Below are positions 1,096 to 59,297 of a stretch of DNA of 59,297 nt, piece by piece; within the stretch, counting starts at the first letter, position 1, and every line of letters starts with the position of its first letter. Under the pieces are notes generated by a model, which ran no database searches, was not told the DNA's origin, and saw only the letters and a list, made by a program, of their open reading frames with translations. Source of the stretch: a virus. The translations under genes and the position numbers were made by a program. The stretch lies in the IMG/VR virus record IMGVR_UViG_3300045988_117970. One strand, 5' to 3'.

Positions 1096-2121
1096 CTATG
1101 CTAAAAAATCCGTTATATTCATTTGTCCGTTCTGTTCCCACGTTTCTGTCTCTATTCCGCATGTTTCCAATGCATCCTGATATCTTACTCCATTATTTTT
1201 CAGTTCCATGCAGATCTGATAATGTCGCGGGTGTGCCATTGCCATACGCTGGAATCTGTTGGGACATTTTTCCATATGTGCGCCAAAAGCACAGAACATA
1301 CAGCCAGTACGCTGTTCGCCTGTGGTGTAGTATATGCCGCTTGGTGTTTGCTTTATATCGCCATATACAGAACATATCTCAACATCATTTTCCACTATGT
1401 ATCTAAGTACGTCCTGCCTTGTCCATGGACCGAGGGGCTGGCTCTTGATTGTTTTTCCATCATATACATTGCAGCCAGTATGAGCATATTGGTGTTCACG
1501 TCTGAAACCCTCGTCCTGTGTTGTCCCTATATATGGCACCCGCCCGGTTCTTTTCACATAATCTTTAAATGGTCCTTTCTTGGTAATGTCACAGCACTGT
1601 TCACTGATATCAAATTTGGTATCCAGCAAAAATCTCCACTTTTTAGGGAGCATACCGAACTTTCCTCTTTCATCGCCATTCAGCAAATAGTTTCTGTATC
1701 TGTCTGATAGATTCCCATGCCGCAGTTTTCTTATCTTTGGCGCGGTCTCTTTGCTGATTAAAGGAAATCCGTATTTCTCAACTACCTGTTTAAATGTAAC
1801 TCTGCTTCCATCTTTCCATTTGGGATAGATTTCGACAAATTCTCCGCTGGCCCGACGTGCAAATCTTACTATCTCAGGAAATTCCAAACCAGTATTTGAG
1901 AATACTGCCGGAACTTCCTGCCCAACGGTTTTTCTTATCATATGCAGTAATGCTGTGCTGTCCAAACCGCCAGAATAGCTCAAATACACTTGACCGCCCC
2001 AGTTGTCATACCATTCCTCAATGCGCTTTCGTGAGAGACGCAACTTAGTTTCATATGGCAGGTATTTTCTCTGCGCAAACTGCCAATCATTTAATTTCAA
2101 ATCATCTTCCTGTATGAACAT
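1096..2121 (-). CDS. PAPS-reductase / PP-loop ATP-pyrophosphatase family protein (DndC/IbrA-like)
   Basis: SYSGGLDS PP-loop motif; C-terminal Cys cluster (TGCMFCAFG); 341 aa. Confidence 0.75.
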   Translation of the reverse strand: MFIQEDDLKLNDWQFAQRKYLPYETKLRLSRKRIEEWYDNWGGQVYLSYSGGLDSTALLHMIRKTVGQEVPAVFSNTGLEFPEIVRFARRASGEFVEIYPKWKDGSRVTFKQVVEKYGFPLISKETAPKIRKLRHGNLSDRYRNYLLNGDERGKFGMLPKKWRFLLDTKFDISEQCCDITKKGPFKDYVKRTGRVPYIGTTQDEGFRREHQYAHTGCNVYDGKTIKSQPLGPWTRQDVLRYIVENDVEICSVYGDIKQTPSGIYYTTGEQRTGCMFCAFGAHMEKCPNRFQRMAMAHPRHYQICMELKNNGVRYQDALETCGIETETWEQNGQMNITDFLA

Positions 2122-16540: not shown

Positions 16541-18103
16541 TCACTGGACATATTTTTTCTTTTTGTAATACGCCGCAATCCAGCCAGACGGAATCCGCAT
16601 CCAGATATTTCCTGCACTGTCATTTTTGATTTCAAGACAGGAAACTTCTGTTCCCTTTTTCAGTTCGCCGGTTGTGTACGCATGTTTTCTGGCATTTTCA
16701 GTGAGGTCCTGCCATTTCTTTGCGGAATAATCTGTGCCAGCCCCCTTGCGGACTCTCAGATTATCTACCGCAGTAGTATAAACCTTTCCGACGGTATATG
16801 TAGGAGCCTTGCTGGCTGAACTTCCAGTGCCGGAAGTCTTTGCATTATGCAGCGCAACCAGTTTTGCTTTTGAAGCTGGGCCGTATTTTCCATCAACTTC
16901 AAGACCGTTTGCTTTCTGGAACTTTTTGAGTGCTTTATCTGTATTGGTTCCGAAATCTCCATCCGCTCCGGCAGTTCCGCAGGAATATCCGAGATCAATC
17001 AACATGAACTGCATAGTTTTGACTGCTGCCCCTGTGTCGCCTTTCATCAGATAATTTCTTTCGGCGTTCTGTGCAGTTTCTCCGCCGGTATATCTCAGAA
17101 CGTGAGTCCAAGGATAATTCCTGTAACTACGGATCAGGAACTCCTTACCAGTCTGATCCCCCGGTCGTCCGCCATGCGCCGTTCCTTTTTCGTTGATAGA
17201 AGCCTCAACCTCTTTACCATTTCCACAGTACATAGCAACATGATAAATCTCATTTAAAAGGACGTCGCTTCGTTCCAGTCCCTCTCCGGTTGCAAGGTTG
17301 ACTTTTGCTGTAATATCTTCAAAGCCATTTTTCAGGAACACCGGTCTCATATTCCCGGTATATGTGGCTCCTTTTGTTTTTACTGGAACTCCTGCCTGTT
17401 CCCACGCTTCAATCGTAGCGGAAGAACAGTCATAATCCGGTCCCCATCTATTGTCCTGATCGTATCCATGACTATTATCATTCGCCGTGTTCTCCATCCA
17501 CGAAATGGCGCTCTCTTTCTTCTGCTGTACTTCCGACACTTTCTTTTCCCCTTTCGCATAACTGTCATAAAACTTCTGTCCTCTGGCAGCTCTACCAGCA
17601 CACACGCTCTCTCTCGTATTTGCCGGAATCTCGAACTTTTTCAGAACAATGTCCGACGCTTCACGAATTGAGGTGGCTGTCTTCAGCACCTTCAAGACAG
17701 ATCCGTAGCTCTCCTGTAATTCTTTCAGCAGGTATTCAATCTGCATATCTTCATTGGCAATGGATACGCCTTTCTGCTTTGCCAGATTCCACAGTCCTGC
17801 TTTTCGTCCCGGGCTTGTCCACTGCGCCAGACCATATCCATACTGCTTGCCAGCCAGCGGGTGAAGAAATTCTTCGCAAGAGATTTTTCCATTGTCAACC
17901 GCTGCTGTATAGGTTTCATGCGTATAGACCTTTCCAACTTCTTTCAGTCTGTTCAGACACAGATACTCTACTCTGTTCGGGTAAAAGCCATCACTTTCCG
18001 CTTCCAGATTTCCGATCAGTCCGCAAGCCCCAGCCGGTGTCATGCCTGCCTGAATAAATTTCTTATAAGCTCTTTTCTCTGCTTCAAAGTTAATCGTCGT
18101 CAT
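16541..18103 (-). CDS. Multidomain endolysin
   Basis: N-terminal lysozyme-like domain (GYGLAQWTSPGRK), central NlpC/P60- or amidase-like domain, PG_binding_1-like repeat (GDFGTNTDKALKKFQKANGLEVDG), C-terminal SH3-like domain. Confidence 0.85.
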   Translation of the reverse strand: MTTINFEAEKRAYKKFIQAGMTPAGACGLIGNLEAESDGFYPNRVEYLCLNRLKEVGKVYTHETYTAAVDNGKISCEEFLHPLAGKQYGYGLAQWTSPGRKAGLWNLAKQKGVSIANEDMQIEYLLKELQESYGSVLKVLKTATSIREASDIVLKKFEIPANTRESVCAGRAARGQKFYDSYAKGEKKVSEVQQKKESAISWMENTANDNSHGYDQDNRWGPDYDCSSATIEAWEQAGVPVKTKGATYTGNMRPVFLKNGFEDITAKVNLATGEGLERSDVLLNEIYHVAMYCGNGKEVEASINEKGTAHGGRPGDQTGKEFLIRSYRNYPWTHVLRYTGGETAQNAERNYLMKGDTGAAVKTMQFMLIDLGYSCGTAGADGDFGTNTDKALKKFQKANGLEVDGKYGPASKAKLVALHNAKTSGTGSSASKAPTYTVGKVYTTAVDNLRVRKGAGTDYSAKKWQDLTENARKHAYTTGELKKGTEVSCLEIKNDSAGNIWMRIPSGWIAAYYKKKKYVQ

Positions 18104-19205: not shown

Positions 19206-19639
19206 TTCTTCCTCCAGAAATAATAATGCGGCTTTTCTTCCCCAAACATGTTATATCTCAATTCGTCGTCCAGTACGATTGCCACCCCTGACAGGAAAAA
19301 CCACAGGCATGAAAATGGCAAGCAGATCTGCCCCCACAAATTCAGCGGCATATTGCTGTAGTCCCAGATATTCAGACCAAGCCACATATTCAGAACAATG
19401 CCTGCAATCAGTTCTGTGCCGGTAATAATCAGGCAGCCAATCAACATCTGCAACGGAAATGGCATATCCCATCCGATATGCTCATTCAAAAGCCCACACA
19501 TAACGAAGCAGAAGCCCCCGACGGCAAACATCGTCCAGTGCGTATGCCCTCTAAAAAGCAATTCAAAAAGGCAATAAAGAAGTCCTCCTATCGCCCACAG
19601 ATACATGGTCTTATACAACTTCTTCAGAAATAACTTCAT
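19202..19639 (-). CDS. Polytopic membrane protein (resembles the family annotated as putative ABC-transporter type IV)
   Basis: 145 aa with 4 predicted TM helices. Confidence 0.55.
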   Translation of the reverse strand: MKLFLKKLYKTMYLWAIGGLLYCLFELLFRGHTHWTMFAVGGFCFVMCGLLNEHIGWDMPFPLQMLIGCLIITGTELIAGIVLNMWLGLNIWDYSNMPLNLWGQICLPFSCLWFFLSGVAIVLDDELRYNMFGEEKPHYYFWRKK

Positions 19640-20313
19640 TTTACCTCCGCCTCCTTCAAATATTCTTTCAGAACTTCCGACTGATACTCTCCCGGAATTT
19701 CATCGCCGTACTGGATTGCTTCAATCTCGGAAGCTTTCGTACATGATTTTACCCAGTCATACATACTATTGCAGTAGGTGGTCTGGACAGACACATGCTC
19801 CATCGCAGCCTTTACGACAAGCCCCATTTCTTCGGCAGTATAGAACTTGCATGGATTGCCGTCATTGTGGTATTCGCATTTTTCAGCGCCGGCGTTGAGC
19901 TGAGCCTGTTTACCAAAGAGATTGAGCTGATCGTGAATAGTCAGGCTGAAATGCTGCGTTTCTTCCCCAATTATAACGTCGATGCCGGAAACAATTTTTT
20001 CTTCACACGCTGCTGATACTTCCGACAACTTTGCAGCTCTTCTTGCTTCAATCCCAAGTTCATTTGCATCTAAGTCGGGAATCTGTTCCAACATAGAAAA
20101 CCAGAAACCAAAATCAGCAGCAATTTCCTTTTCTGAAATCACTGCTGCATCTACCCTACAAAAAATCTCGTCAGCCTCATATCCTGTCGGGCCATCTTCT
20201 ATTTCCTGTACAATTTCATGCTGGTTGTTCCTGAGCCACACATCTGCTACGCCATTCGGCTTTGCCTTGTACACTACCTTTTCCATTTTTTCGGGACTTT
20301 GAACCTTGTGCAT
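19636..20313 (-). CDS. Tail-fibre-associated protein (XkdW/DUF4376-like, tentative)
   Basis: GGAGG RBS before the ATG at 20313. Located after the fibre gene and the DGR. Confidence 0.5.
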   Translation of the reverse strand: MHKVQSPEKMEKVVYKAKPNGVADVWLRNNQHEIVQEIEDGPTGYEADEIFCRVDAAVISEKEIAADFGFWFSMLEQIPDLDANELGIEARRAAKLSEVSAACEEKIVSGIDVIIGEETQHFSLTIHDQLNLFGKQAQLNAGAEKCEYHNDGNPCKFYTAEEMGLVVKAAMEHVSVQTTYCNSMYDWVKSCTKASEIEAIQYGDEIPGEYQSEVLKEYLKEAEVK

Positions 20314-21721
20314 AATATCGCCTCCACATATTGAAATATTTTTTCTCAACATAGCCATTTCCTTTGTCGTAATCGCTTGCTATTTTCCTTGCGATCCGCA
20401 TAAGTTCATCTACCTTGTTTCTGATCCGGTATTTCACCATATTGGTATTTTTGAACCAGCCATATGCAGATATGACTGATCTCACAAATTTGATTTTTAC
20501 AGTAACATGGTGTTTTACCAGCTTCAGAAATTTATTCATCTTCCGTCGTGCGGTAAGAAAAATGTTCCTGCGGATTGTTACCCATACTTTCTTGTGCTTT
20601 TTCTGTCTCCCAAAATATGACTTCGTTTCTACATCTCCGCCATGAAACCGAAATCCCATGAAATCCAGTAGGGCACCCTTTGTTTTTCCGACCTGATCCT
20701 CATACATGGTTTTCTGCATAATCCAGTCCGGCTTGATTCTCAGGTCAAGGAAATTCAACATGTAGGCAATCATCATTTTAACTGCCTGCTTCAAATGGGT
20801 TTTATTTGCTGCATACATTGTTATGTCGTCCATATAGAAAATGATATGTGAGATTAACCTTTTGATTTTCGTCTGCCCTCTCCGGCAGGTTTCTTTAACC
20901 AGTCGCTCGCTTGCATAATGATAAGCGTATGAGAGAAAATAATTGCATAAATCCTTTGATACAGGAGAGCCTATCAGAATACCTCTGTCCGGTGCCAACG
21001 CTTCCGGTGACGGCCATTCCTCATATAACTCAATAAATACAGTAAACAGATATAGTAGCTCGTCCGATTTGTGCAGATCTCTTTTCAGCAGCTCCAATAG
21101 TTTTCCATGCCGGATTGACGGATAGCATTTCTTCACGTCCGCCTTTGCACTATATCTTGTACCCTCAACATCATTAGAGAGCCAACGCAGGACTGCTTTC
21201 TTGCCATAGTTCTGGCCTCTTCCTTTGATGGAAGCACACTGGTATGTTCCAAGCTTTGCTTTGAACAACGGCTCTGCCGCCTTTGCTGCAACCTGCTCAT
21301 ATAGGCGAAACAATATCGTTTCAAGCCCAAGCATACGTTCCTTTCCACTTCCCGGGTCGTTGATCTTTGTATAACGGATCAATGGCTGTCCGTAAGTGTT
21401 CGCCAGCAAATGTTCTCTAACGGTTCTGGTGCGGATATGATACGCCATTTCCAACGCCAGCTTGTAATGCGCCGCCCTCCAGAAATCATTCTCAGGAAGA
21501 TTGCCAACACTCAGTGCCGCAAACTCTTTACGGTCTACCGGCTCTAGGTTCGTCAGTTGCGGTTTTAGATACTGTTTTACATACTCCCGGCTTTCCCCGG
21601 TATAGCAGGCAAAGAACTTCACAGAGCTATTCTTTCTGTATTTATCGTGCATATAATCTGTGATTACGTCGTAAATTCTATCTGCGTCCGAAACCACAAG
21701 TCTCTTGCAATATGTTTTCAT
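20216..21721 (-). CDS. DGR-type reverse transcriptase
   Basis: Motifs ADVKKCYPSI, GILIGSPVSKDLCNYFL, IIFYMDDITMYA, LDFMGFRF. The start is probably the ATG at 21721 (MKTYCKRL); the track start at 21814 adds a Cys/Trp-rich leader. Confidence 0.85.
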   Translation of the reverse strand: MKTYCKRLVVSDADRIYDVITDYMHDKYRKNSSVKFFACYTGESREYVKQYLKPQLTNLEPVDRKEFAALSVGNLPENDFWRAAHYKLALEMAYHIRTRTVREHLLANTYGQPLIRYTKINDPGSGKERMLGLETILFRLYEQVAAKAAEPLFKAKLGTYQCASIKGRGQNYGKKAVLRWLSNDVEGTRYSAKADVKKCYPSIRHGKLLELLKRDLHKSDELLYLFTVFIELYEEWPSPEALAPDRGILIGSPVSKDLCNYFLSYAYHYASERLVKETCRRGQTKIKRLISHIIFYMDDITMYAANKTHLKQAVKMMIAYMLNFLDLRIKPDWIMQKTMYEDQVGKTKGALLDFMGFRFHGGDVETKSYFGRQKKHKKVWVTIRRNIFLTARRKMNKFLKLVKHHVTVKIKFVRSVISAYGWFKNTNMVKYRIRNKVDELMRIARKIASDYDKGNGYVEKKYFNMWRRYYAQGSKSRKNGKGSVQGKAEWRSRCVAQEQPA

Positions 21722-22016
21722 GTTTCTCTTTCTTTCTGCTTCAAGGACGTTCGGGTTTACTACTAGCCCCCATCTGTGTCCACTTCCGCCACAGAGCCAG
21801 AGACATGTTGCCATGCCTCCGGTGCTGGTTCGTCAATTTCGGGCATTCCGCCCCAGCTCTTTCGGGGTTCCCTTTAAGGGAACGAAATACAGCACATCTA
21901 AGTTATGCAGAAATTCGAGCGGCATAGTTCCAGTTCCAGTTGGAAAGCCCATTGTTCAGGTTCGCATTCCGACGGCCGTCAATCGTGCCATTGTTCAGGT
22001 TGCCCGAGCCAAGAAC
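21722..22016 (-). ncRNA. DGR template RNA (TR plus structured spacer)
   Basis: Non-coding. Spacer hairpin GTTCCC-TTAAA-GGGAAC (21867-21883) and a CCCC...GGGG stem (21851-21867). Confidence 0.6.
21903..22016 (-). repeat. DGR template repeat (TR)
   Basis: Matches 22155-22268 at an offset of 252 bp. In the target frame it reads VLGSGNLNNGTIDGRRNANLNNGLSNWNWNYAARISA, with 10 AAY codons. Confidence 0.85.
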
Positions 22017-22081
22017 GGAAGCCACTGTGCTGTAAGTCCTGTTGAAATATCGTTGATAGTTACATTTTCTTATGCTGCCTT

Positions 22082-22101
22082 AAAAGGGGAGATCCCCTCT
22101 T
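22082..22101 (-). promoter_or_regulatory. Hairpin downstream of the VR (DGR target-recognition cruciform and/or terminator)
   Basis: Minus strand AAGAGGGG-ATCT-CCCCTTTT: 8-bp stem including one G-U pair, 4-nt loop, 24 nt after the stop. Confidence 0.55.
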
Positions 22102-22124
22102 GCTGTCGCAATTCACCCCCGGCG

Positions 22125-23879
22125 TTATGCAGCCGCTTTGCGCCCGCAACGCCCACAGGCAGAAAGACGAGCGGCAGAGGTCCAGTACCAGGCGGAAAGC
22201 CCATCGGACAGGGACGCAACCCGACGGCCGTCAATCGCGCCACTGCCCAGGTGGCACGAGCCAAGAACCTCTCGCTGGCCGTCGCCAGCGTTTTCGAGGT
22301 TCTCTGTATAAAGCCCATCAGCATAACCAGTGCTGGAAGTTGCTGCGGCCTCAACTGGATAACGTACTTCTGGATCATCAGCCGAATAGCCAAGCTTGCT
22401 GATATATTTCCAGTTGCCTTTGTTATCCGGAATTGCATAGCCAAGAGCAACCCAATCATCTGTTGTCGCTCCTGCTGTAGTCATTTTGGTACAGTCATAG
22501 CAGATATACGGACGCATAACATGGTTTTCGATCTTCATAACTGTGTTTCCCTTTGGCTCCCAGAAGCCAGAAGACATTTCCACGCCAAACAGAATATATG
22601 GTTCTTTATTGCTGGTATTGCTTACCGGAGAGCCACAAGAACCTAATACATCATCGCAACCGCCAGTATTCCACGGCATTGTTGTGATATAGGTTTCGCA
22701 GGTCACGCCGGATACAGTTGTCGGAGCTGTTGAAAACTTCTGCCCGCCATTATCAACATACACAGCGGAATTGTTATCGTCATAGTCCTCAATTTTCGTA
22801 ATGCGAACTCTATTAGCTTTTGCATGAATCCCACTCTGTCCTCTGTCGTTGTTTGGCTTTCCTTCACCATTCAGTGCATTTGCATTTCCGATGGATACTG
22901 TGCTTCCAGCAACAAGGTTCTTGGCATTGTTTTTGGAAATAATGATCCTTTCCACATCCGTTTCCTGTACTGTCGCAGCATACTGCAAATAGTAGTTTGT
23001 GCAGCCTGCCATCACCGACTGGCTGTGTCTGGTGGCAAAAGCAATCTCCATAAGCCTTGTCATTCTCTCAGAATCCTGTGAGGTTTCAGCACAATACTGA
23101 GTACCTTTTTCTCGCATATGAGTCAATGCAGAAGCAAAACTGTAGTTTCTAAATTCAAGCCACGACTCCAAGGCTTCATCTGGCTTTGCACTATTACTTT
23201 TCCTTTCATACCAGCCAGGAATTCCACCACTAACAGAAGCAGCCCTTCCTCCCCATTCTTCGCTAGCCATATATTTTGCAATCGCCACAAATGGTCGGAT
23301 TGTTCCATCCGGTCTGATTGCGCCACCCTCTGGCAGCCATTCTGCAGAGTGTCTGGTATCAGAAATAACGGTATCCTCACCGTTGACATCAAATTTACGA
23401 TACACATACTGAGTCAGATACAGACACCATGTATCGTACTTTGTCCGGGAGAACTCATTATCAATATCCTTGATGTACTGAACCTGAAAATCTCCATTCT
23501 CGTCAACAGATCCATTGACTTCCAGATAAGCAAAACAGCCTCTTCCATCGAAATCATTCTTTGCCCGGACAGTGTTAGTTGAAGGTGCTGCGTTCATTCC
23601 AACAGCGTCGTATAATCTGGTTCCGGTACTGGCAGGTGTCACATCGTAATTATCAAAGTGAACGCCATACTTCTTTCCGTCTTTATGCAGATTCAGAAGG
23701 AATAACGCCTGCTCATTTTTTGTGCCGGCAAAATTTGTGACCGCTTCTTTCAGGGCAACATCATTTTGAATGAGCTGTCCAAACAGTTCATTGAAAACGT
23801 CTGCATGATTACGGTCAGTTGTTTCCAGCATTCGCAAATATTCGTTGAATACCGCATTGTTCACATCAAAAAAGCTCAT
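22125..23879 (-). CDS. Tail fibre / receptor-binding protein; DGR target with a C-terminal variable region
   Basis: 584 aa, positioned after the baseplate genes. The C-terminus ...VLGSCHLGSGAIDGRRVASLSDGLSAWYWTSAARLSACGRCGRKAAA carries the VR. Confidence 0.8.
   Translation of the reverse strand: MSFFDVNNAVFNEYLRMLETTDRNHADVFNELFGQLIQNDVALKEAVTNFAGTKNEQALFLLNLHKDGKKYGVHFDNYDVTPASTGTRLYDAVGMNAAPSTNTVRAKNDFDGRGCFAYLEVNGSVDENGDFQVQYIKDIDNEFSRTKYDTWCLYLTQYVYRKFDVNGEDTVISDTRHSAEWLPEGGAIRPDGTIRPFVAIAKYMASEEWGGRAASVSGGIPGWYERKSNSAKPDEALESWLEFRNYSFASALTHMREKGTQYCAETSQDSERMTRLMEIAFATRHSQSVMAGCTNYYLQYAATVQETDVERIIISKNNAKNLVAGSTVSIGNANALNGEGKPNNDRGQSGIHAKANRVRITKIEDYDDNNSAVYVDNGGQKFSTAPTTVSGVTCETYITTMPWNTGGCDDVLGSCGSPVSNTSNKEPYILFGVEMSSGFWEPKGNTVMKIENHVMRPYICYDCTKMTTAGATTDDWVALGYAIPDNKGNWKYISKLGYSADDPEVRYPVEAAATSSTGYADGLYTENLENAGDGQREVLGSCHLGSGAIDGRRVASLSDGLSAWYWTSAARLSACGRCGRKAAA
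22155..22268 (-). repeat. DGR variable repeat (VR) in the fibre-gene 3' end
   Basis: 22 of 23 mismatches to the TR lie at TR adenines on the coding strand. Confidence 0.85.
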
Positions 23880-23896: not shown

Positions 23897-24277
23897 TTAG
23901 AATGTATCGTCGCATTCAAAGATTGCTTCCATATCGCCGTCTTTGCCTTTTTTCATAAATGCCTTAAAGGCTACAAAGTCGCCCTGTGCGTCATACAGAC
24001 CAACTTCGGAAATATATTCTCCAGCAAGCTCACTGGCTGTCAGTGTACAGCTATACCGGATTTTGGTATCAGACACTACGGTATAGCCGTCGATGTTCTT
24101 TCTCAGGACTTCTTTGTGAAGTGCGTTCTGATCCGGTGAATGTACCACAATTTCACCAGCGGAATTTACGCCGCCGGTACCAAATGCCATTCCTACGATT
24201 TTGGGAAGCGCAGCGATACCAGCTCTTGCTTCCAGCATTTTCTTCTTTGCTCTTGTCGTAACGGTTGTTCCTGCCAT
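23897..24277 (-). CDS. Tail-collar / fibre-proximal protein
   Basis: 126 aa; EYISEVGLYDAQGDFVAFKAF motif and position. Confidence 0.5.
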   Translation of the reverse strand: MAGTTVTTRAKKKMLEARAGIAALPKIVGMAFGTGGVNSAGEIVVHSPDQNALHKEVLRKNIDGYTVVSDTKIRYSCTLTASELAGEYISEVGLYDAQGDFVAFKAFMKKGKDGDMEAIFECDDTF

Positions 24278-46073: not shown

Positions 46074-46484
46074 ATGCGTATTAAAAACATGACGGTCACA
46101 TCGACATTCAAATATCTGTGGTTGAAAACTGTAACGGATGTCGATCTATCACAGCATTGTGCCAAATGTCTTATCGGTGAATATGATACTCGAATCAACA
46201 ACCGTATCACCGAAGCTGCAGACATCCCCCTCTCGAACAGTGTCTACTACCTGTGTGGCGTAGCCTATCCGTATAACTGGTCGAAAAACTTTCATCTCGC
46301 ATTTCGACCATGTGAAGGAAATGTACTCACTTACAAAAGCAATGGCATATCCATCACAATAGAGGATGCCATTGAGTTACCTATCGACCCTCGTTTTAAT
46401 CATCACCCGAAGATGATTTATAAATCTTACAGCACTTGCCGGAACTGGCAGTTTGCTAACTGGTTCAATGATAACTTAAAATAG
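46074..46484 (+). CDS. Orphan plus-strand hypothetical protein (moron-like)
   Basis: AAGGAGG RBS 9 nt before the ATG; 136 aa. Antisense island between terS and the ParB-like genes. Confidence 0.55.
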   Translation: MRIKNMTVTSTFKYLWLKTVTDVDLSQHCAKCLIGEYDTRINNRITEAADIPLSNSVYYLCGVAYPYNWSKNFHLAFRPCEGNVLTYKSNGISITIEDAIELPIDPRFNHHPKMIYKSYSTCRNWQFANWFNDNLK

Positions 46485-47829
46485 TCTCAACCAAGCGCTC
46501 ATGTTGATTGTGTCTGTATCCTCCGGGATATTCCAGATTGAATTCAATATTGAGCGCTTTCTCGTATCTTTCTTTTCCGAGGTCTTTTGGCTTTCTGCAT
46601 ACCGCCCAGATCTGTGTTGCTCCCTTATCAACGACCTGCACATCTTCAAAATATCTTTTCAGTGTGCGTGTCAGGGATTCCTTATCATGGAATTTCTGCA
46701 TAGTCCATGTTCCCTTACGGAATGTGGCACTGAAATTATCCTTATCCAGAAATTCAATATATCTTACAGAATCTGTGCTTGTGTTCAGATTGCCTCTGTC
46801 CTGTACGACCTGCAGGTTTCGTGTACCGGTGAAGAATGTTCCGTCTTCTGACATTAGGGCATTGCAGCATGTCAGCACCCAGTCTTCATACTCATTGCTC
46901 GTAATGGAATTGATTACCGAATCCAGCACAACCACATTGTAAAGCCCCTTCTCCTTTATATCCCGGTTAAGAGCTTTTATCATGCGGACGACTTCGCTTA
47001 CATTCAGCTTTTCAGTTCCTTCCGTTTTGTAGAACGGCTCGTACCAGTGTGTGTCGTAGCCCTTCTGCCGCAGGTTCTTGCTGTAGAAACATTTACCTGC
47101 GCCAAAATCCACAAGCCTGTCCTGTTTGGTTAAGCTCGGGATCACATAATTCTCATACAGTGTGCTTTTGATACTGGAACCGTTGCGGCTCATTTGACAA
47201 TGTGTCTGCACATAGGGCTTGATTCCCAGCGTTTCATAATTGTACTCGCCGTAATCAATTCCCAAATACATGAGAAATTCCCTCACATGCTCATTGTGCA
47301 TTTTATAAACCACACAATCATTTCCCAGCAACTTGCAGCAATACGCATAATCTGCATTGTGGATCACATTGCCATCCTCGTCCACGATAATGTTTCCGTA
47401 ATCTCCATATTTTGAGATCAGACGGCTGATTTCCTTTATGATTGATCCTTTGCCCTTATGTACCGCTTCCAGATGAGTGTTCTCAATCAGCGTGAATCCG
47501 AACGGAAGATCCGCAGCATTATCAATCCGCATTTTTGCCGTTTCTGTTTCCACGCTGTTGTGCATAAGGTTGAATTTGATTTCATCCTGCAAAGACACAT
47601 TCTTTTCCAGAATGAAGATCGGGCAGTGATTTATGCCTACTGCTTTCATAGCCTTTGTCCTCTGGTGCCCTGCAACGATTGTACCGTCAAGGTTTGCGAT
47701 AACAGCTTTGCACACGCCAAACTTTAAAAGGCTTTCTTGCAGCTTTTCAAAAGCATTCTCTTTGATTTTTCTAGGGTTGTAATCTGCCGGTGTGATCTGG
47801 TCTATCGGATAGTTCTCAATAAACCGCAT
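46465..47829 (-). CDS. ParB/Srx N-terminal domain fused to a Rossmann SAM-methyltransferase-like domain
   Basis: N-terminal ITPADYNPRKI...IVAGHQRTKA; C-terminal RLVDFGAGKCF and VVVLDSVINSI. No (D/N/S)PP(Y/F) motif seen. Confidence 0.6.
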   Translation of the reverse strand: MRFIENYPIDQITPADYNPRKIKENAFEKLQESLLKFGVCKAVIANLDGTIVAGHQRTKAMKAVGINHCPIFILEKNVSLQDEIKFNLMHNSVETETAKMRIDNAADLPFGFTLIENTHLEAVHKGKGSIIKEISRLISKYGDYGNIIVDEDGNVIHNADYAYCCKLLGNDCVVYKMHNEHVREFLMYLGIDYGEYNYETLGIKPYVQTHCQMSRNGSSIKSTLYENYVIPSLTKQDRLVDFGAGKCFYSKNLRQKGYDTHWYEPFYKTEGTEKLNVSEVVRMIKALNRDIKEKGLYNVVVLDSVINSITSNEYEDWVLTCCNALMSEDGTFFTGTRNLQVVQDRGNLNTSTDSVRYIEFLDKDNFSATFRKGTWTMQKFHDKESLTRTLKRYFEDVQVVDKGATQIWAVCRKPKDLGKERYEKALNIEFNLEYPGGYRHNQHERLVETILSYH

Positions 47830-55718: not shown

Positions 55719-56069
55719 ATGGCTTATTTTGAAAGCAAACAGATAGGCAGATATTCCTTTGGGATCAGTGTGGCTTCACTTGATAAATCTTACGATCCCA
55801 CATACCCTGCTCATGCTGTGCTACCGCTGCAAGCAGCCCACAGCAGCTATATACACAGTATTTATATCTTCTGTGTAAAAGGAAGCTCAGAGTGGCGTTC
55901 TGGTCCTTCAGGAAGTAAGTGGAAATATTATGTGTTGAAATCCTCTTCCATACCGCTTGCCGTTCAAAGGCTTGGGTATATCTCATACGATTGGCTTCTT
56001 ACTTTGAAGCCACGGCAATGCCGCCGAAAAAGATTGGATAAAACAATATTGGAAGTGATGGCCGCTTGA
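55719..56069 (+). CDS. Hypothetical lysogeny-module protein
   Basis: AGAGGAGG RBS before the ATG at 55719; 116 aa, between the repressor and integrase genes. Confidence 0.5.
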   Translation: MAYFESKQIGRYSFGISVASLDKSYDPTYPAHAVLPLQAAHSSYIHSIYIFCVKGSSEWRSGPSGSKWKYYVLKSSSIPLAVQRLGYISYDWLLTLKPRQCRRKRLDKTILEVMAA

Positions 56070-56104
56070 TCTCAGGCGGCTTTCATTTTACGAAAGGAGC
56101 ATTG

Positions 56105-57847
56105 ATGGAATTTTCAAAATTGACAAGAGTAGCGATATACATTCGTGTTTCCACCACTATGCAGGCGGAAAACGGCGAGTCTCTTAACGTGCAACGCACC
56201 CAGCTCACGACCTACGCTCAAATGATGCTGAATGCATCGCCTGAGAATATCGTTATTTTTGAAGATGCCGGGTATTCCGGTAAGAATATGGACAGGCCTA
56301 AATTTCAGGATATGATGTCGCAAATCAGAGCTGGCAAATTTTCTCACCTTCTCGTTTGGAAAATTGATCGTATCTCCCGAAATCTACTGGACTTTTCCAT
56401 GATGTATAAAGAGTTAAAAGAATTGGGTGTTACCTTTGTCAGCAAAAACGAACAGTTTGACACCAGCACAGCTATGGGTGAAGCCATGCTCAAAATTATC
56501 CTTGTGTTTGCAGAACTTGAAAGGAATATGACCTCAGAACGTGTTACCCATACTATGATCGCTATGGCTCAGAGTGGGCGTTGGAACGGCGGGCGTGTTC
56601 CTTTCGGATACACATACCGGACAGAAGGCGAAAAGAAGGAAAAGCAGATTTTTGAGATTGACAAAGGTGAGGCTGCATTGGTACAGGAAATATTTGATCT
56701 CTATGAGCAGGAGCGCAGCATAGTCCGTGAAGCCAAAATTCTGAATGACAGGAACGCAATCTCTCGTTATGGACATGAATGGTCGCCTGTGACCGTTCAT
56801 CTGGTTCTCAGAAATATTTTTTACGTAGGAGATTATCGGTACAATGCTCTTCGTGAAGGTGATCGTTCAAAACCTAAACCTGAAAGTGAATGGATCATAG
56901 TCAAGGATCACCACCCGGCAATCATTTCAAGAGAACAGTTCGCCAGAGTGCAAGCCATTCTAAAAGCAAATAAGCGATACCGAAAAGATATGGCTCCTGC
57001 TTCGTCCCGGGAACGTGTTCATATCTTTGGTGGTCTGCTGTTCTGTGGAAACTGTGGAAAACCATTGAATAACTCTGTATCTAACAAAAAGGCGGACGGC
57101 TGGCAATATTCTAATTACCCTTGCCCTACCCGCCGTAGATCTTCGAATAAATGTACAGGAAAATCTACATCGGATCCGGTGGTCGGTGAGTTCGTATTCA
57201 ACTACATTTTGAATATGCTGAATGCTCAGAAAGGATTTAAAGATATACAGACTCCGGTGCAGCTACAAGACCGGCTGCTCTTCGGTGACGCTTTCCACAA
57301 TGTCATATCCATTGACAGTGACGGCCTGAACAGTTTCTTCAATCTACTTTCCTCTGGAAATATCAGCGGTGCAATTTACGGAAAAGATGTGGCTGTAAGT
57401 AAGCCCAAGACCGCCAAAGTAGATCCAGAACTTGTGCGGCTCCGCAAAGAGAAAAAGCGTCTGGAACGTGCGCTGGATCGTCTGCTCAACACTTATATTA
57501 TGAGCGACCGCCCAATTTCTGAGAATGAATATGTCCGAAAGCGAACAGATCTGGAAACCCTGCTCTCCGACGTCAATGACAAACTTGGCATAGCTCAGTC
57601 TGAAGAAGTGCAAATGGCACTGACTGACAGCGAATTTCTTACTAAGGCTTCTCAGTTCATCATTGGGCAAAAACTTTCCAACCGACTATATATCAATTAT
57701 AAGAATCTCGCCCAGTCTGTAGATCCATCTGTACTAAAGACTTTCGTTGTCAGTGTTATTGATAACATTGTGATCTACAACGGAAAAGTCAAGTCCATTG
57801 TCTTCCGAAATGGTCTTGCTGCAACATTTGAATATTCCAGTATATAA
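56105..57847 (+). CDS. int: Large serine recombinase (integrase)
   Basis: RVAIYIRVSTTMQAENGESL resolvase catalytic motif; recombinase domain; Zn-ribbon CGNCGKPL...C; coiled-coil C-terminus. Confidence 0.9.
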   Translation: MEFSKLTRVAIYIRVSTTMQAENGESLNVQRTQLTTYAQMMLNASPENIVIFEDAGYSGKNMDRPKFQDMMSQIRAGKFSHLLVWKIDRISRNLLDFSMMYKELKELGVTFVSKNEQFDTSTAMGEAMLKIILVFAELERNMTSERVTHTMIAMAQSGRWNGGRVPFGYTYRTEGEKKEKQIFEIDKGEAALVQEIFDLYEQERSIVREAKILNDRNAISRYGHEWSPVTVHLVLRNIFYVGDYRYNALREGDRSKPKPESEWIIVKDHHPAIISREQFARVQAILKANKRYRKDMAPASSRERVHIFGGLLFCGNCGKPLNNSVSNKKADGWQYSNYPCPTRRRSSNKCTGKSTSDPVVGEFVFNYILNMLNAQKGFKDIQTPVQLQDRLLFGDAFHNVISIDSDGLNSFFNLLSSGNISGAIYGKDVAVSKPKTAKVDPELVRLRKEKKRLERALDRLLNTYIMSDRPISENEYVRKRTDLETLLSDVNDKLGIAQSEEVQMALTDSEFLTKASQFIIGQKLSNRLYINYKNLAQSVDPSVLKTFVVSVIDNIVIYNGKVKSIVFRNGLAATFEYSSI

Positions 57848-58981: not shown

Positions 58982-59297
58982 TTTCTTTTTCCTCCTTGTA
59001 GCATTCTGGCAGTGGCATCCAAGCGTTCACATATAAATCGTGCTCAATAAAACTCTCGTCCTCGTCACCGATTCTAAACGTGCCACCGCCATCGCCATCA
59101 ACTGTATATCTTCCGATCATCGGAAGTGAGCAGTTTTTGAATGATACTAAAATAAGCTTATCTGGCTCTGGCAGTCTTTCTGTTACCAGAATCCAATGAT
59201 TTTTTTGCTCTAGCTGTTCTGCCTCGTTTACAATTTCAATCGCTCTGTCGATTGCAACTTTTTCACCCATTTCTCCAGTTTCACATTGTGAAGTATA
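58974..59297 (-). CDS. 3' part of the wrap-around DUF551-like gene (open to the window end)
   Basis: HWILVTERLPEPDK...VNAWMPLPECY. The frame stays open through 59297 and continues at 100-345. Confidence 0.7.
   Translation of the reverse strand, partial: YTSQCETGEMGEKVAIDRAIEIVNEAEQLEQKNHWILVTERLPEPDKLILVSFKNCSLPMIGRYTVDGDGGGTFRIGDEDESFIEHDLYVNAWMPLPECYKEEKENG
59199..59297. repeat. Terminal direct repeat, copy B
   Basis: Identical to 1-99. Confidence 0.95.

Follow-up and report, generated by a model that had tools for sequence, protein, structure and literature searches.

Diversity-generating retroelements (DGRs) acting on lectin-fold tail proteins are well known from gut phages (PMC8008677, PMC6199706) and are a familiar feature of the gut virome; the existence of another such element in a phage of this kind is therefore unsurprising. 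The closest described systems are the DGR of the Bordetella phage BPP-1, with the order mtd-avd-TR-brt, and the elements of architecture A, in which the target gene, the template repeat (TR), and the reverse transcriptase (RT) gene follow one another; in the survey of Wu et al. 2018 (PMC5758913), 26% of DGRs were without avd, the gene for the common but not universal accessory variability determinant (Avd), and 29% had architecture A, and an Avd-independent mechanism was postulated. Here, we describe a locus on the minus strand of the IMG/VR virus record IMGVR_UViG_3300045988_117970 (59,297 nt; this whole stretch is referred to as the window), where a target gene ending in a variable repeat (VR), a TR, and an RT gene lie in this order. 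We put the probability that this locus is a complete, probably active DGR of the Avd-less target-TR-RT architecture at roughly 0.93. A preliminary description of this DNA had already proposed a DGR, an identity that is borne out by adenine-specific TR/VR mismatches, VR heterogeneity, an RT resembling that of BPP-1 (bRT), and a target resembling the Thermus aquaticus protein TaqVP.

Template repeat, variable repeat, and their natural variation

A repeat finder returned a sole long direct repeat between 19.5 and 24.5 kb, with copies at 21907–22016 and 22159–22268, a spacing of 252 nt, and 82% identity. The ungapped alignment of 114 nt on the minus (coding) strand (TR, 22016→21903; VR, 22268→22155) contained 23 mismatches, 22 at a template adenine (A) and one at a G (TR 22004, VR 22256); 22 of the 29 template adenines were altered in the VR (hypergeometric p = 1.8e-16). 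The two co-oriented 114-nt repeats lying 252 nt apart and the 22 of 23 mismatches at template A, with the exception at 22004 versus 22256, had been reported in the preliminary description from an alignment made by hand, and the repeat finder and the computed alignment agree with that report; its TR and VR translations, the ten AAY codons, and the YMDD box of the RT are likewise as it had claimed. The TR (21903–22016, minus strand) is composed of a mutagenic core (21925–22001), which holds 24 adenines in 14 codons, and a tail (21903–21924) resembling the IMH* sequence of other DGRs (IMH, initiation of mutagenic homing). The A-bearing codons are ten AAY codons plus ACG, ATT, GAC, and TAT, a design with a capacity of 2.8e14 DNA sequences and ~1.5e14 proteins, in which a stop codon is impossible. 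Although a 40-codon open reading frame (ORF; 21903–22025) trivially overlaps this copy, the TR is non-coding in function, as had been stated. The VR, defined by homology to the TR (22155–22268, minus strand), covers codons 538–575 of the 584 codons of the target gene, with a diversified core at 22177–22253 (codons 543–568); no second or remote VR was found elsewhere in the window.

The 3′ end of the VR (22155–22176, minus strand; GCCGCTCG TCTTTCTGCCTGT) is IMH-like and carries five fixed differences from the TR tail. These differences, which are the five 3′-most mismatches at A (TR 21915, 21914, 21906, 21904, and 21903), come after a GC-rich GCCGCUCG (the GCCGCTCG of the VR end just given). 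The same TR/VR differences were present in all of 16 related loci drawn from IMG/VR and GTDB genomes, each with its own TR/VR pair; in these loci the TRs end in ...CGAAUUUCUGCAUAA and the VRs in ...CGUCUUUCUGCCUGU. Because the tail differences are identical in the 16 loci, they are considered fixed and not products of ongoing mutagenesis; codons 569–575 were also invariant among 120 homologues of the target. Judging from these comparisons, the five positions behave like the IMH/IMH* pair of the Bordetella element. The earlier interpretation of the mismatches as products of mutagenesis thus does not extend to these five positions, but it stands for the core at 22177–22253, where, with the five fixed 3′ positions left out, 17 of 18 mismatches are at A (p = 7e-13).

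A large protein collection yielded >1,200 homologues of the target, 77 of which were of equal length and 89–98% identical. Most alignment columns of these 77 homologues held one to three residue types; columns 543, 545, 546, 554, 556, 558, 559, 563, 564, and 567 held 9–14 residue types each, and columns 548–550 and 568 held 4–6 each. The variable columns are the A-bearing template codons, and among 120 homologues variation was confined to the 14; an offset between columns 564 and 565 results from a different template in the 92% group (NNWW versus NWNW/NSNW). Among the 34 relatives with the most similar type of TR, residues at these codons matched the options of NNY, NCG, NTT, GNC, and TNT codons, with no K, E, Q, M, or W, and those seen at AAY codons were the residues permitted by A randomisation (ACDFGHILNPRSTVY). 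Codon 549 was an exception, with S, N, and D seen; the template of those relatives reads AAT, not ATT.

The 16 related loci presented 8–24 TR/VR mismatches apiece, nearly all at A, and the loci L004–L008 had one identical TR and four different VRs. Two relatives (L118 and L119) presented 99.5% identity to the window across 9.7 kb and one difference in 1,611 nt of target-gene body; their VRs differed from that of the window at 18 and 12 of 114 positions, respectively, which represents a 20–30-fold enrichment (Fisher 3e-20 and 4e-12). All of these VR differences were at TR-A sites except two, one at 22256, which is private to the window, and one at 22189, which mirrors the sole TR difference (21937) between L118/L119 and the window. 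In six related loci, all non-A TR substitutions (35/35) were copied in the VR of the same locus. Information flow is from TR to VR, with the direction itself deduced from the A-richness of the TR. These data show A-specific variation, an invariant template next to a hypervariable VR, and template-to-VR transfer that includes non-A changes of the TR; the VR heterogeneity to which the preliminary description had tied its DGR claim is present among near-identical genomes (L118 and L119).

Decayed templates were also seen among the relatives. In L032 and L034 (GTDB genomes), the 5′ two-thirds of the TR are without their adenines and are identical to the VR of the same locus. The TR tail of L034 is VR-like as well (CGTCTTTCTGC...), and this locus looks like one in which the TR turned homing target and was itself mutagenised. 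The TRs of L100 and L111 (IMG/VR) are A-poor and present many non-A mismatches.

Reverse transcriptase and cassette architecture

The RT gene (20216–21721, minus strand) encodes a protein of 501 amino acids (aa) with a YMDD box, the motif IGSPVSK, and a match to RVT_1 (3e-14). Its start is the ATG at 21721 (MKTYCK), 181 nt downstream of the TR, which is conserved in 36 homologues and was picked by independent gene calls; the start at 21814 given in the preliminary description had to be abandoned, as that ATG falls inside a conserved non-coding spacer. The RTs of most relatives end in ...MWRRxYA, and those of the window and a few relatives extend ~31 residues into the next gene; residues 475–501 of this tail present a predicted local distance difference test (pLDDT) score <50 and are predicted to be disordered, and the gene overlap is 59–143 nt, depending on the start of the downstream DUF4376 gene. 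C-terminal extensions have been reported on ~20% of DGR RTs (Wu et al. 2018, PMC5758913).

A profile of 36 members of this RT family aligned by hhalign with bRT at a probability of 99% (E = 9e-18), with bRT R74, D138, I181-G182, and D215/D216 equivalent to R129, D195, I250-G251, and D298/D299 of the window RT, respectively; conservation in the family extends to the catalytic Asp residues and to the counterparts of bRT R74, I181, and G182. The equivalent of bRT Q187, a residue that contacts the incoming deoxynucleoside triphosphate in the cryo-electron microscopy structure (Handa et al., bioRxiv 10.1101/2023.10.23.563531), is K256 (20954–20956). The palm motif, [I/L/V]GxxxSQ, accordingly reads IGSPVSK in the window and its close relatives and IGSHLSQ or IGSYLSQ in distant family members. 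Adenine mutagenesis evidently persists despite this change from Q to K, since the K-bearing sub-clade, from comparison of its members, is clearly diversifying.

A profile search of the PDB returned bRT (8ub7_A; 3.5e-10) as the top match, ahead of group II RTs, and no retron, Abi, or DRT chain at E ≤ 1e-3. The AlphaFold2 (AF2) model of the RT (pLDDT 90.3) gave its best superposition with bRT, at a Foldseek template-modelling (TM) score of 0.82 normalised to bRT; GsI-IIC reached a TM score of 0.55 to the model, with an E-value slightly better than that of bRT. The RT is ~170 aa longer than bRT, with the additional length spread over the N-terminal region, insertions, and the C-terminus. The hhalign alignment, the PDB profile search, and the TM score of the predicted structure all point to this protein belonging with the DGR RTs, and neither profile nor structure comparison grouped it with retron, group II, or Abi RTs, a grouping that the preliminary description had named as evidence against a DGR.

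The locus would not be a DGR at all if the two repeats had arisen by duplication followed by ordinary divergence or recombination and the nearby RT belonged to a retron, a group II intron, or an Abi/DRT system. Such an explanation can draw on weak matches of the RT to several DRT/UG models (≤51 bits) and to a group II RT model (65 bits), as well as on relatives that are named "retron-type RT" in databases. However, the A-specific mismatches (p < 1e-12) recur in >50 loci, in which the RT is constantly adjacent to the TR/VR pair, and the computed ungapped alignment shows that the A-bias is no artefact; the score for the group II model (TIGR04416) is far under its cut-off of 300, and bRT heads the PDB profile search, where retron, Abi, and DRT structures do not appear at the threshold given above. 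Rfam was searched across the whole window at the gathering threshold and across 21650–22200 at E ≤ 1; neither search gave a match, and no group II intron RNA or retron RNA was found. The PADLOC matches to DRT/UG defence RTs (UG4, UG26, and UG17) were rejected on score, context, and structural comparison. We regard this explanation as effectively refuted, with next to no probability left to it.

No Avd-type Pfam or NCBIfam match was found among the 123 ORFs of 85–200 aa in the window; the gap of 138 nt between VR and TR contains no ORF, and the neighbouring small ORFs are also without Avd. The absence of Avd had not been noticed in the preliminary description. An alignment of the RT family was used to fetch 80 IMG/VR loci (396 IMG/VR stretches encode relatives), and >50 loci were inspected. 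These loci share a constant plan, down to an RT identity of ~33%, which consists of the VR, 93–206 nt, a TR of 107–114 nt, 170–217 nt, and the RT; space for an accessory gene was never present, and the RT always adjoined the TR/VR pair. The element represents the documented Avd-less architecture A (target-TR-RT).

Non-coding elements and proposed mechanism

Two conserved segments on the minus strand bracket the TR and pair with each other. The upstream segment (22026–22039) is composed of a GGACU motif (22039–22035) and the 5′ strand of a helix (UACAGCACA, 22034–22026), and the downstream segment (21883–21896) is composed of the 3′ strand (UGUGCUGUA, 21896–21888), which in the window begins 8 nt after the TR, and a conserved UUUCG (21887–21883); the overall layout is GGACU, the 9-nt strand, 3–20 nt, the TR, 5–20 nt, the complementary strand, and UUUCG. 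The helix draws its support from covariation, as eight of the nine pairs presented double compensatory changes among 16 distinct sequences, and it is also present in the minimum free energy fold of the single sequence. Paired cells amounted to 93%, as compared to 72% in shuffles (0/500 reached the observed value) and 12–51% with the partner strand slid, on the understanding that, among several UUUCG-like sites, the best-pairing one was chosen. The helix is analogous to the cPRT Stop duplex of BPP-1, which has been found in 207 Avd-bearing DGRs, in an analysis that did not cover Avd-less DGRs (Handa et al., bioRxiv 10.1101/2023.10.23.563531). An Avd-binding stem-loop directly 3′ of the TR was not found; the helix strand located 5–20 nt after the TR leaves no space for an 11-bp stem-loop, which is consistent with the absence of Avd.

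The spacer between the TR and the RT (21722–21887, minus strand) is predicted to be a structured RNA with conserved hairpins and with single-stranded motifs that include GAAAUUGACGAACCAGCA and UAGUAGUAAA. Its RNAalifold consensus over 17 loci (RT identity to ~33%) contains 29 pairs, 22 of which are kept through two-sided changes, so that covariation argues for these helices as well.

Another element (22086–22120, minus strand) is located between the stop codon of the target gene and the TR, and is composed of GGGGGUGAAU, a hairpin (UUGC-GACA-GCAA), and GAGGGG-AUCU-CCCC. In its general form (GGGG(G)UGAAU, hairpin, GAGGGG-N4-CCCC; i.e., GGGGUGAAU-hairpin), this post-VR element was found in 51 of 55 loci, with the related loci running from L041 to L116, and in all clades of the RT family but one; L077 is without it, and the motif occurs once in the window. 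The first hairpin is variable in length and was therefore checked per sequence; its sequence is clade-specific yet self-complementary. The second hairpin is invariant, hence outside the reach of covariation, and was the only hairpin recovered by MAFFT and RNAalifold. This element may serve as a homing signal, belong to the DGR RNA as a 5′ portion of it, or delimit a transcript. In BPP-1, a hairpin or cruciform is located 3′ of the IMH, and the post-VR element could be its counterpart. The GGGG-N4-CCCC sequence was also considered as a terminator and rejected, as it is not canonical and the T-run is not conserved.

The Bordetella BPP-1 paradigm, from which the cis-primed reverse transcription and the homing chemistry are borrowed here, suggests how the element may work. 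An RNA with the 114-nt TR would be made, its fold held by a helix of 8–9 bp that comes after GGACU and before UUUCG, with the multi-hairpin spacer of ~170 nt next to it. The adjacent 501-aa RT would copy the TR to cDNA, misincorporating solely at adenines, and this cDNA would supplant the homologous VR in the 3′-terminal part of the tail-fibre gene, in one direction from TR to VR; the 3′ tails (IMH and IMH*), with their five fixed differences, may single out the VR as the acceptor and shield the TR. Through this process, 24 adenines in 14 codons would be randomised on the C-type-lectin-fold C-terminus of the fibre, probably altering its ligand specificity.

A more tentative proposal, to which we give somewhat less than even odds, is that the enlarged RT (450–500 aa) itself takes the positioning role of Avd, and that the family is a single-protein DGR clade with its own cis elements; the GGGGUGAAU-hairpin-GAGGGG(N4)CCCC element 3′ of the VR could then be the target-recognition signal for homing. 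If this proposal is true, these elements would amount to a minimal DGR that works by a distinct mechanism and has a defined RNA, and would make an attractive, compact tool for targeted mutagenesis.

Several points weigh against a complete and active DGR. No Avd gene was found in the window, and the BPP-1 RT depends on Avd for its activity (Handa et al., bioRxiv 10.1101/2023.10.23.563531); the clade of the window RT has IGSPVSK where bRT has IGSLTSQ, thus K in place of Q. A promoter and terminator scan of 21600–22300 returned nothing, including no promoter-like site for the TR RNA. A primer duplex between TR and spacer with a priming adenosine, as in BPP-1, was sought, and only inconsistent, short, clade-specific hairpins were found between the TR and the 3′ helix strand, so that none was assigned. 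The receptor-binding role of the target is putative, being read from its position and predicted fold. Finally, one mismatch is not at A, namely the G→T change at VR 22256, which results in Cys542, where 120/120 relatives have Gly and the TR has G. This change is private to the window genome and places a Cys where the scaffold is conserved; a rare RT error at a base other than A, an ordinary mutation, or an assembly error could account for it.

The locus could also be a fossil, that is, a DGR that was active in ancestors but is no longer homing here, due to the Q-to-K change, the RT tail, or a missing accessory factor, with VR differences that are historical. The decayed, A-poor TRs of L032, L034, L100, and L111 would fit such a history, as would the disordered RT tail (residues 475–501) overlapping the next gene and the odd private non-A change in the VR of the window; in addition, activity in the window genome itself is deduced from its relatives. 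However, the TR retains all 29 adenines and the full AAY design, and the RT ORF is unbroken and keeps every catalytic residue. L118 and L119, which are at 0.5% divergence and have the same SK-type 501-aa RT with its tail, have different VRs; a point change in the TR has been transferred to the VR since their divergence from the window, and the SK sub-clade as a whole is hypervariable. We therefore consider a fossil element quite improbable and retain a probably active DGR as the explanation of this locus.

Target protein, phage genome, and comparison with known systems

The target gene (22125–23879, minus strand) encodes a tail-fibre-type variable protein of 584 aa with a predicted C-type-lectin (TaqVP-like) C-terminal domain. 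The protein matches phrog_17147 over its full length (1e-147); Pfam and NCBIfam scans gave no match, and its fold was therefore assigned from a structure model (AF2; pLDDT 89.1, predicted TM score 0.87). In a Foldseek search of the PDB, TaqVP (5vf4, three chains) was the sole significant match to this model (E = 4e-7, probability 1.0), and Mtd (1yu0) appeared at rank 33, not significant. The sequence profile of the target also matched 5vf4 alone in the PDB, with an E-value (0.025) that fails the default threshold of 0.001, and the profile alignment puts the VR on the C-terminal part of TaqVP (chain residues 343–380 of 385). Neighbours in BFVD, a viral structure library, include tail collar fibre proteins of gut phages, fibres of crAss-like phages, and FGE-like and TvpA-like proteins. 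The predicted folds of both the RT and the target are thus supported by models, and the VR is predicted to sit in the C-type-lectin-fold C-terminal domain of the fibre, a fold for which the preliminary description had suggested a structure prediction. The VRs of DGRs occupy a C-type-lectin or Ig fold, mostly at the C-terminus. Residues ~62–584 of the target constitute a widespread module (736 representative clusters of homologues) that is often found behind other N-termini, such as collagen repeats and BppU_N.

A PBSX/Xkd-like set of contractile-tail genes was identified in the window by Pfam matches, and the Xkd-like myophage tail context claimed at the outset is therefore supported. On the minus strand, genes for the sheath, the tube (DUF2001), an XkdN-like chaperone, and the tape measure protein are followed by genes for a LysM protein, a YqbQ-like (YqbQ/XkdQ-like) protein, DUF2577, an XkdS-like sheath initiator, baseplate J, and a Mu-gp48-like protein. 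The next gene (23897–24277, minus strand), directly upstream of the target gene, encodes a 126-aa protein with a tail-collar fibre N-terminal domain (PF12571, 4.5e-6; phrog_1780, 1e-20). The target gene with its VR, the TR, and the RT gene come next, and directly downstream of the RT gene is a gene (19636–20358, minus strand) encoding a DUF4376 protein of a tail-fibre family (PF14301, 7e-7; phrog_1348, 5e-11); its start was placed at 20274 (212 aa) by independent gene callers, and an ATG at 20313, preceded by a ribosome binding site, would give 225 aa. Genes for holin-like proteins and a multidomain endolysin complete the series. The DGR cassette is thus located after the baseplate genes and before the holin and endolysin genes, inside the tail-fibre cluster. 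The endolysin gene (16541–18103, minus strand) encodes four domains (Phage_lysozyme2, Amidase_5-like, ELLD, and PG_binding_1) and is preceded by genes for an r1t-type holin and a CmpB-like membrane protein.

The gene position and the predicted fold suggest that the target may mediate switching of host range or tropism, and the BPP-1 paradigm would likewise lead one to expect receptor binding with a consequence for host range. Alternatively, the DGR may be real and its target an accessory adhesin for mucus, glycans, or another surface, or a protein with some other role, in which case no host-range switch would follow. The target has no Pfam domain, and its function is read from where the gene lies and from its fold; the gene is flanked by separate members of tail-fibre families (those for the 126-aa collar N-terminal protein and the DUF4376 protein), and some phage DGRs are known to have targets that lie outside structural modules (Benler 2021, PMC8008677). 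In contrast, the target gene is located inside the tail-fibre cluster, with baseplate genes on one side and the lysis cassette on the other, its structural neighbours are annotated as tail collar fibres or tail fibres, including fibres of crAss-like phages, and modules homologous to it occur as fusions with fibre stalks of the collagen-like or BppU_N kind. We judge an accessory adhesin unlikely and favour a receptor-binding tail fibre as the probable role of the target.

The window begins and ends with one and the same 99-nt sequence (1–99 = 59199–59297), which points to an assembly that is circular and has a k-mer overlap, and thus to a complete genome of ~59,198 bp (~59.2 kb). A contig in ENA (ERZ2112033, NODE_263; 59,260 bp) contains a 9.7-kb cassette locus identical to that of the window and is permuted differently. 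The phage is a temperate myophage of a gut Lachnospiraceae host. The assignment as temperate is based on a large serine recombinase/integrase gene (56066–57847, plus strand; phrog_95, 6e-125), which adjoins helix-turn-helix repressor-type genes, and agrees with the presence of related prophages in Jingyaoa and Blautia genomes. Kindred cassettes were found in genomes of Jingyaoa shaoxingensis, Blautia spp., and other Lachnospiraceae, and cultured lysogens of related prophages include Jingyaoa shaoxingensis NSJ-46, with locus L030, and Blautia sp. Sow4_E7, with locus L034. A blastn search of INPHARED found no DNA similarity to any annotated phage record; at the protein level, distant matches only were found, in unannotated faecal phage contigs. 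No tRNA gene was found in a tRNA scan. Two further genes are possible auxiliary or counter-defence genes, one encoding a protein similar to phosphoadenosine phosphosulfate reductase (1096–2121, minus strand; phrog_424) and one encoding a 454-aa protein with a ParB-like N-terminal domain that also matches phage methyltransferase families (46465–47829, minus strand).

The closest structural counterpart of the target is TaqVP, with 5vf4 as its sole significant structural match; however, sequence identity is 11–13% and the global TM score 0.29–0.45, and TaqVP is a cellular protein of 381 aa, whereas the target is a 584-aa phage tail protein with extra domains. With regard to architecture, the element resembles the Avd-less DGRs of Wu et al. 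2018 (PMC5758913), which include architecture A and Lineage 3, in its target-TR-RT order and the absence of an accessory gene. It differs from Lineage 3A, which is Bacteroides-specific according to that survey, in that the clade described here is found in Lachnospiraceae; furthermore, the cis elements found here are not reported in the text of that survey as read.

The element shares with the BPP-1 DGR a location at the end of the phage tail genes and beside the lysis genes, a VR at the C-terminus of a tail protein with a (here predicted) C-type-lectin fold, and a TR of ~110–134 nt that is AAC-rich and located just upstream of the RT gene, with adenine-specific mismatches. Fixed 3′ differences between the TR and VR tails (IMH/IMH*) are also common to both, as are a duplex of TR-upstream sequence with the spacer (cPRT Stop in Handa et al.) and a structured TR-RT spacer, and the model of the window RT superposes on bRT with the TM score of 0.82 given above. 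In contrast to the window, BPP-1 has avd between mtd and the TR, and an Avd-binding stem-loop directly after the TR, a position at which the window has none. The window RT is of 501 aa, as compared to 328 aa for bRT, with ~55 aa more in its N-terminal region, insertions at internal sites, and an extended C-terminus, and it has IGSPVSK in place of IGSLTSQ; the target protein of the window matches TaqVP and not Mtd. Finally, the window represents a Firmicutes myophage, whereas BPP-1 is a Bordetella podophage.

The element also resembles the DGRs of human-gut phages (Hankyphage, Quimbyvirus, crAss-like phages, and Faecalibacterium phages), which have a C-type-lectin target at a tail-fibre locus, and for which activity was likewise argued from variation at A sites among near-identical genomes (Benler 2021, PMC8008677). 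Fibres of crAss-like phages are structural neighbours of the target, and their RTs are among the tblastn matches of the window RT. However, the closest RTs in annotated phages are 23–32% identical to the window RT and the closest targets ≤40% identical, and the window phage differs further in its Lachnospiraceae host and in having no DNA similarity in INPHARED. The family described here provides a clean natural demonstration of DGR activity, with hundreds of near-identical target genes that vary at 14 predictable codons, and the comparative data supply testable cis elements for the Avd-less class (i.e., the bracketing helix, the structured spacer, and the post-VR element), together with an enlarged RT. 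What this locus adds to the known gut-phage elements therefore lies in the cis elements of an Avd-less clade, in the Q-to-K change in the RT motif, and in cultured lysogens, as the prophages in Jingyaoa shaoxingensis NSJ-46 and Blautia sp. Sow4_E7 make experiments feasible.

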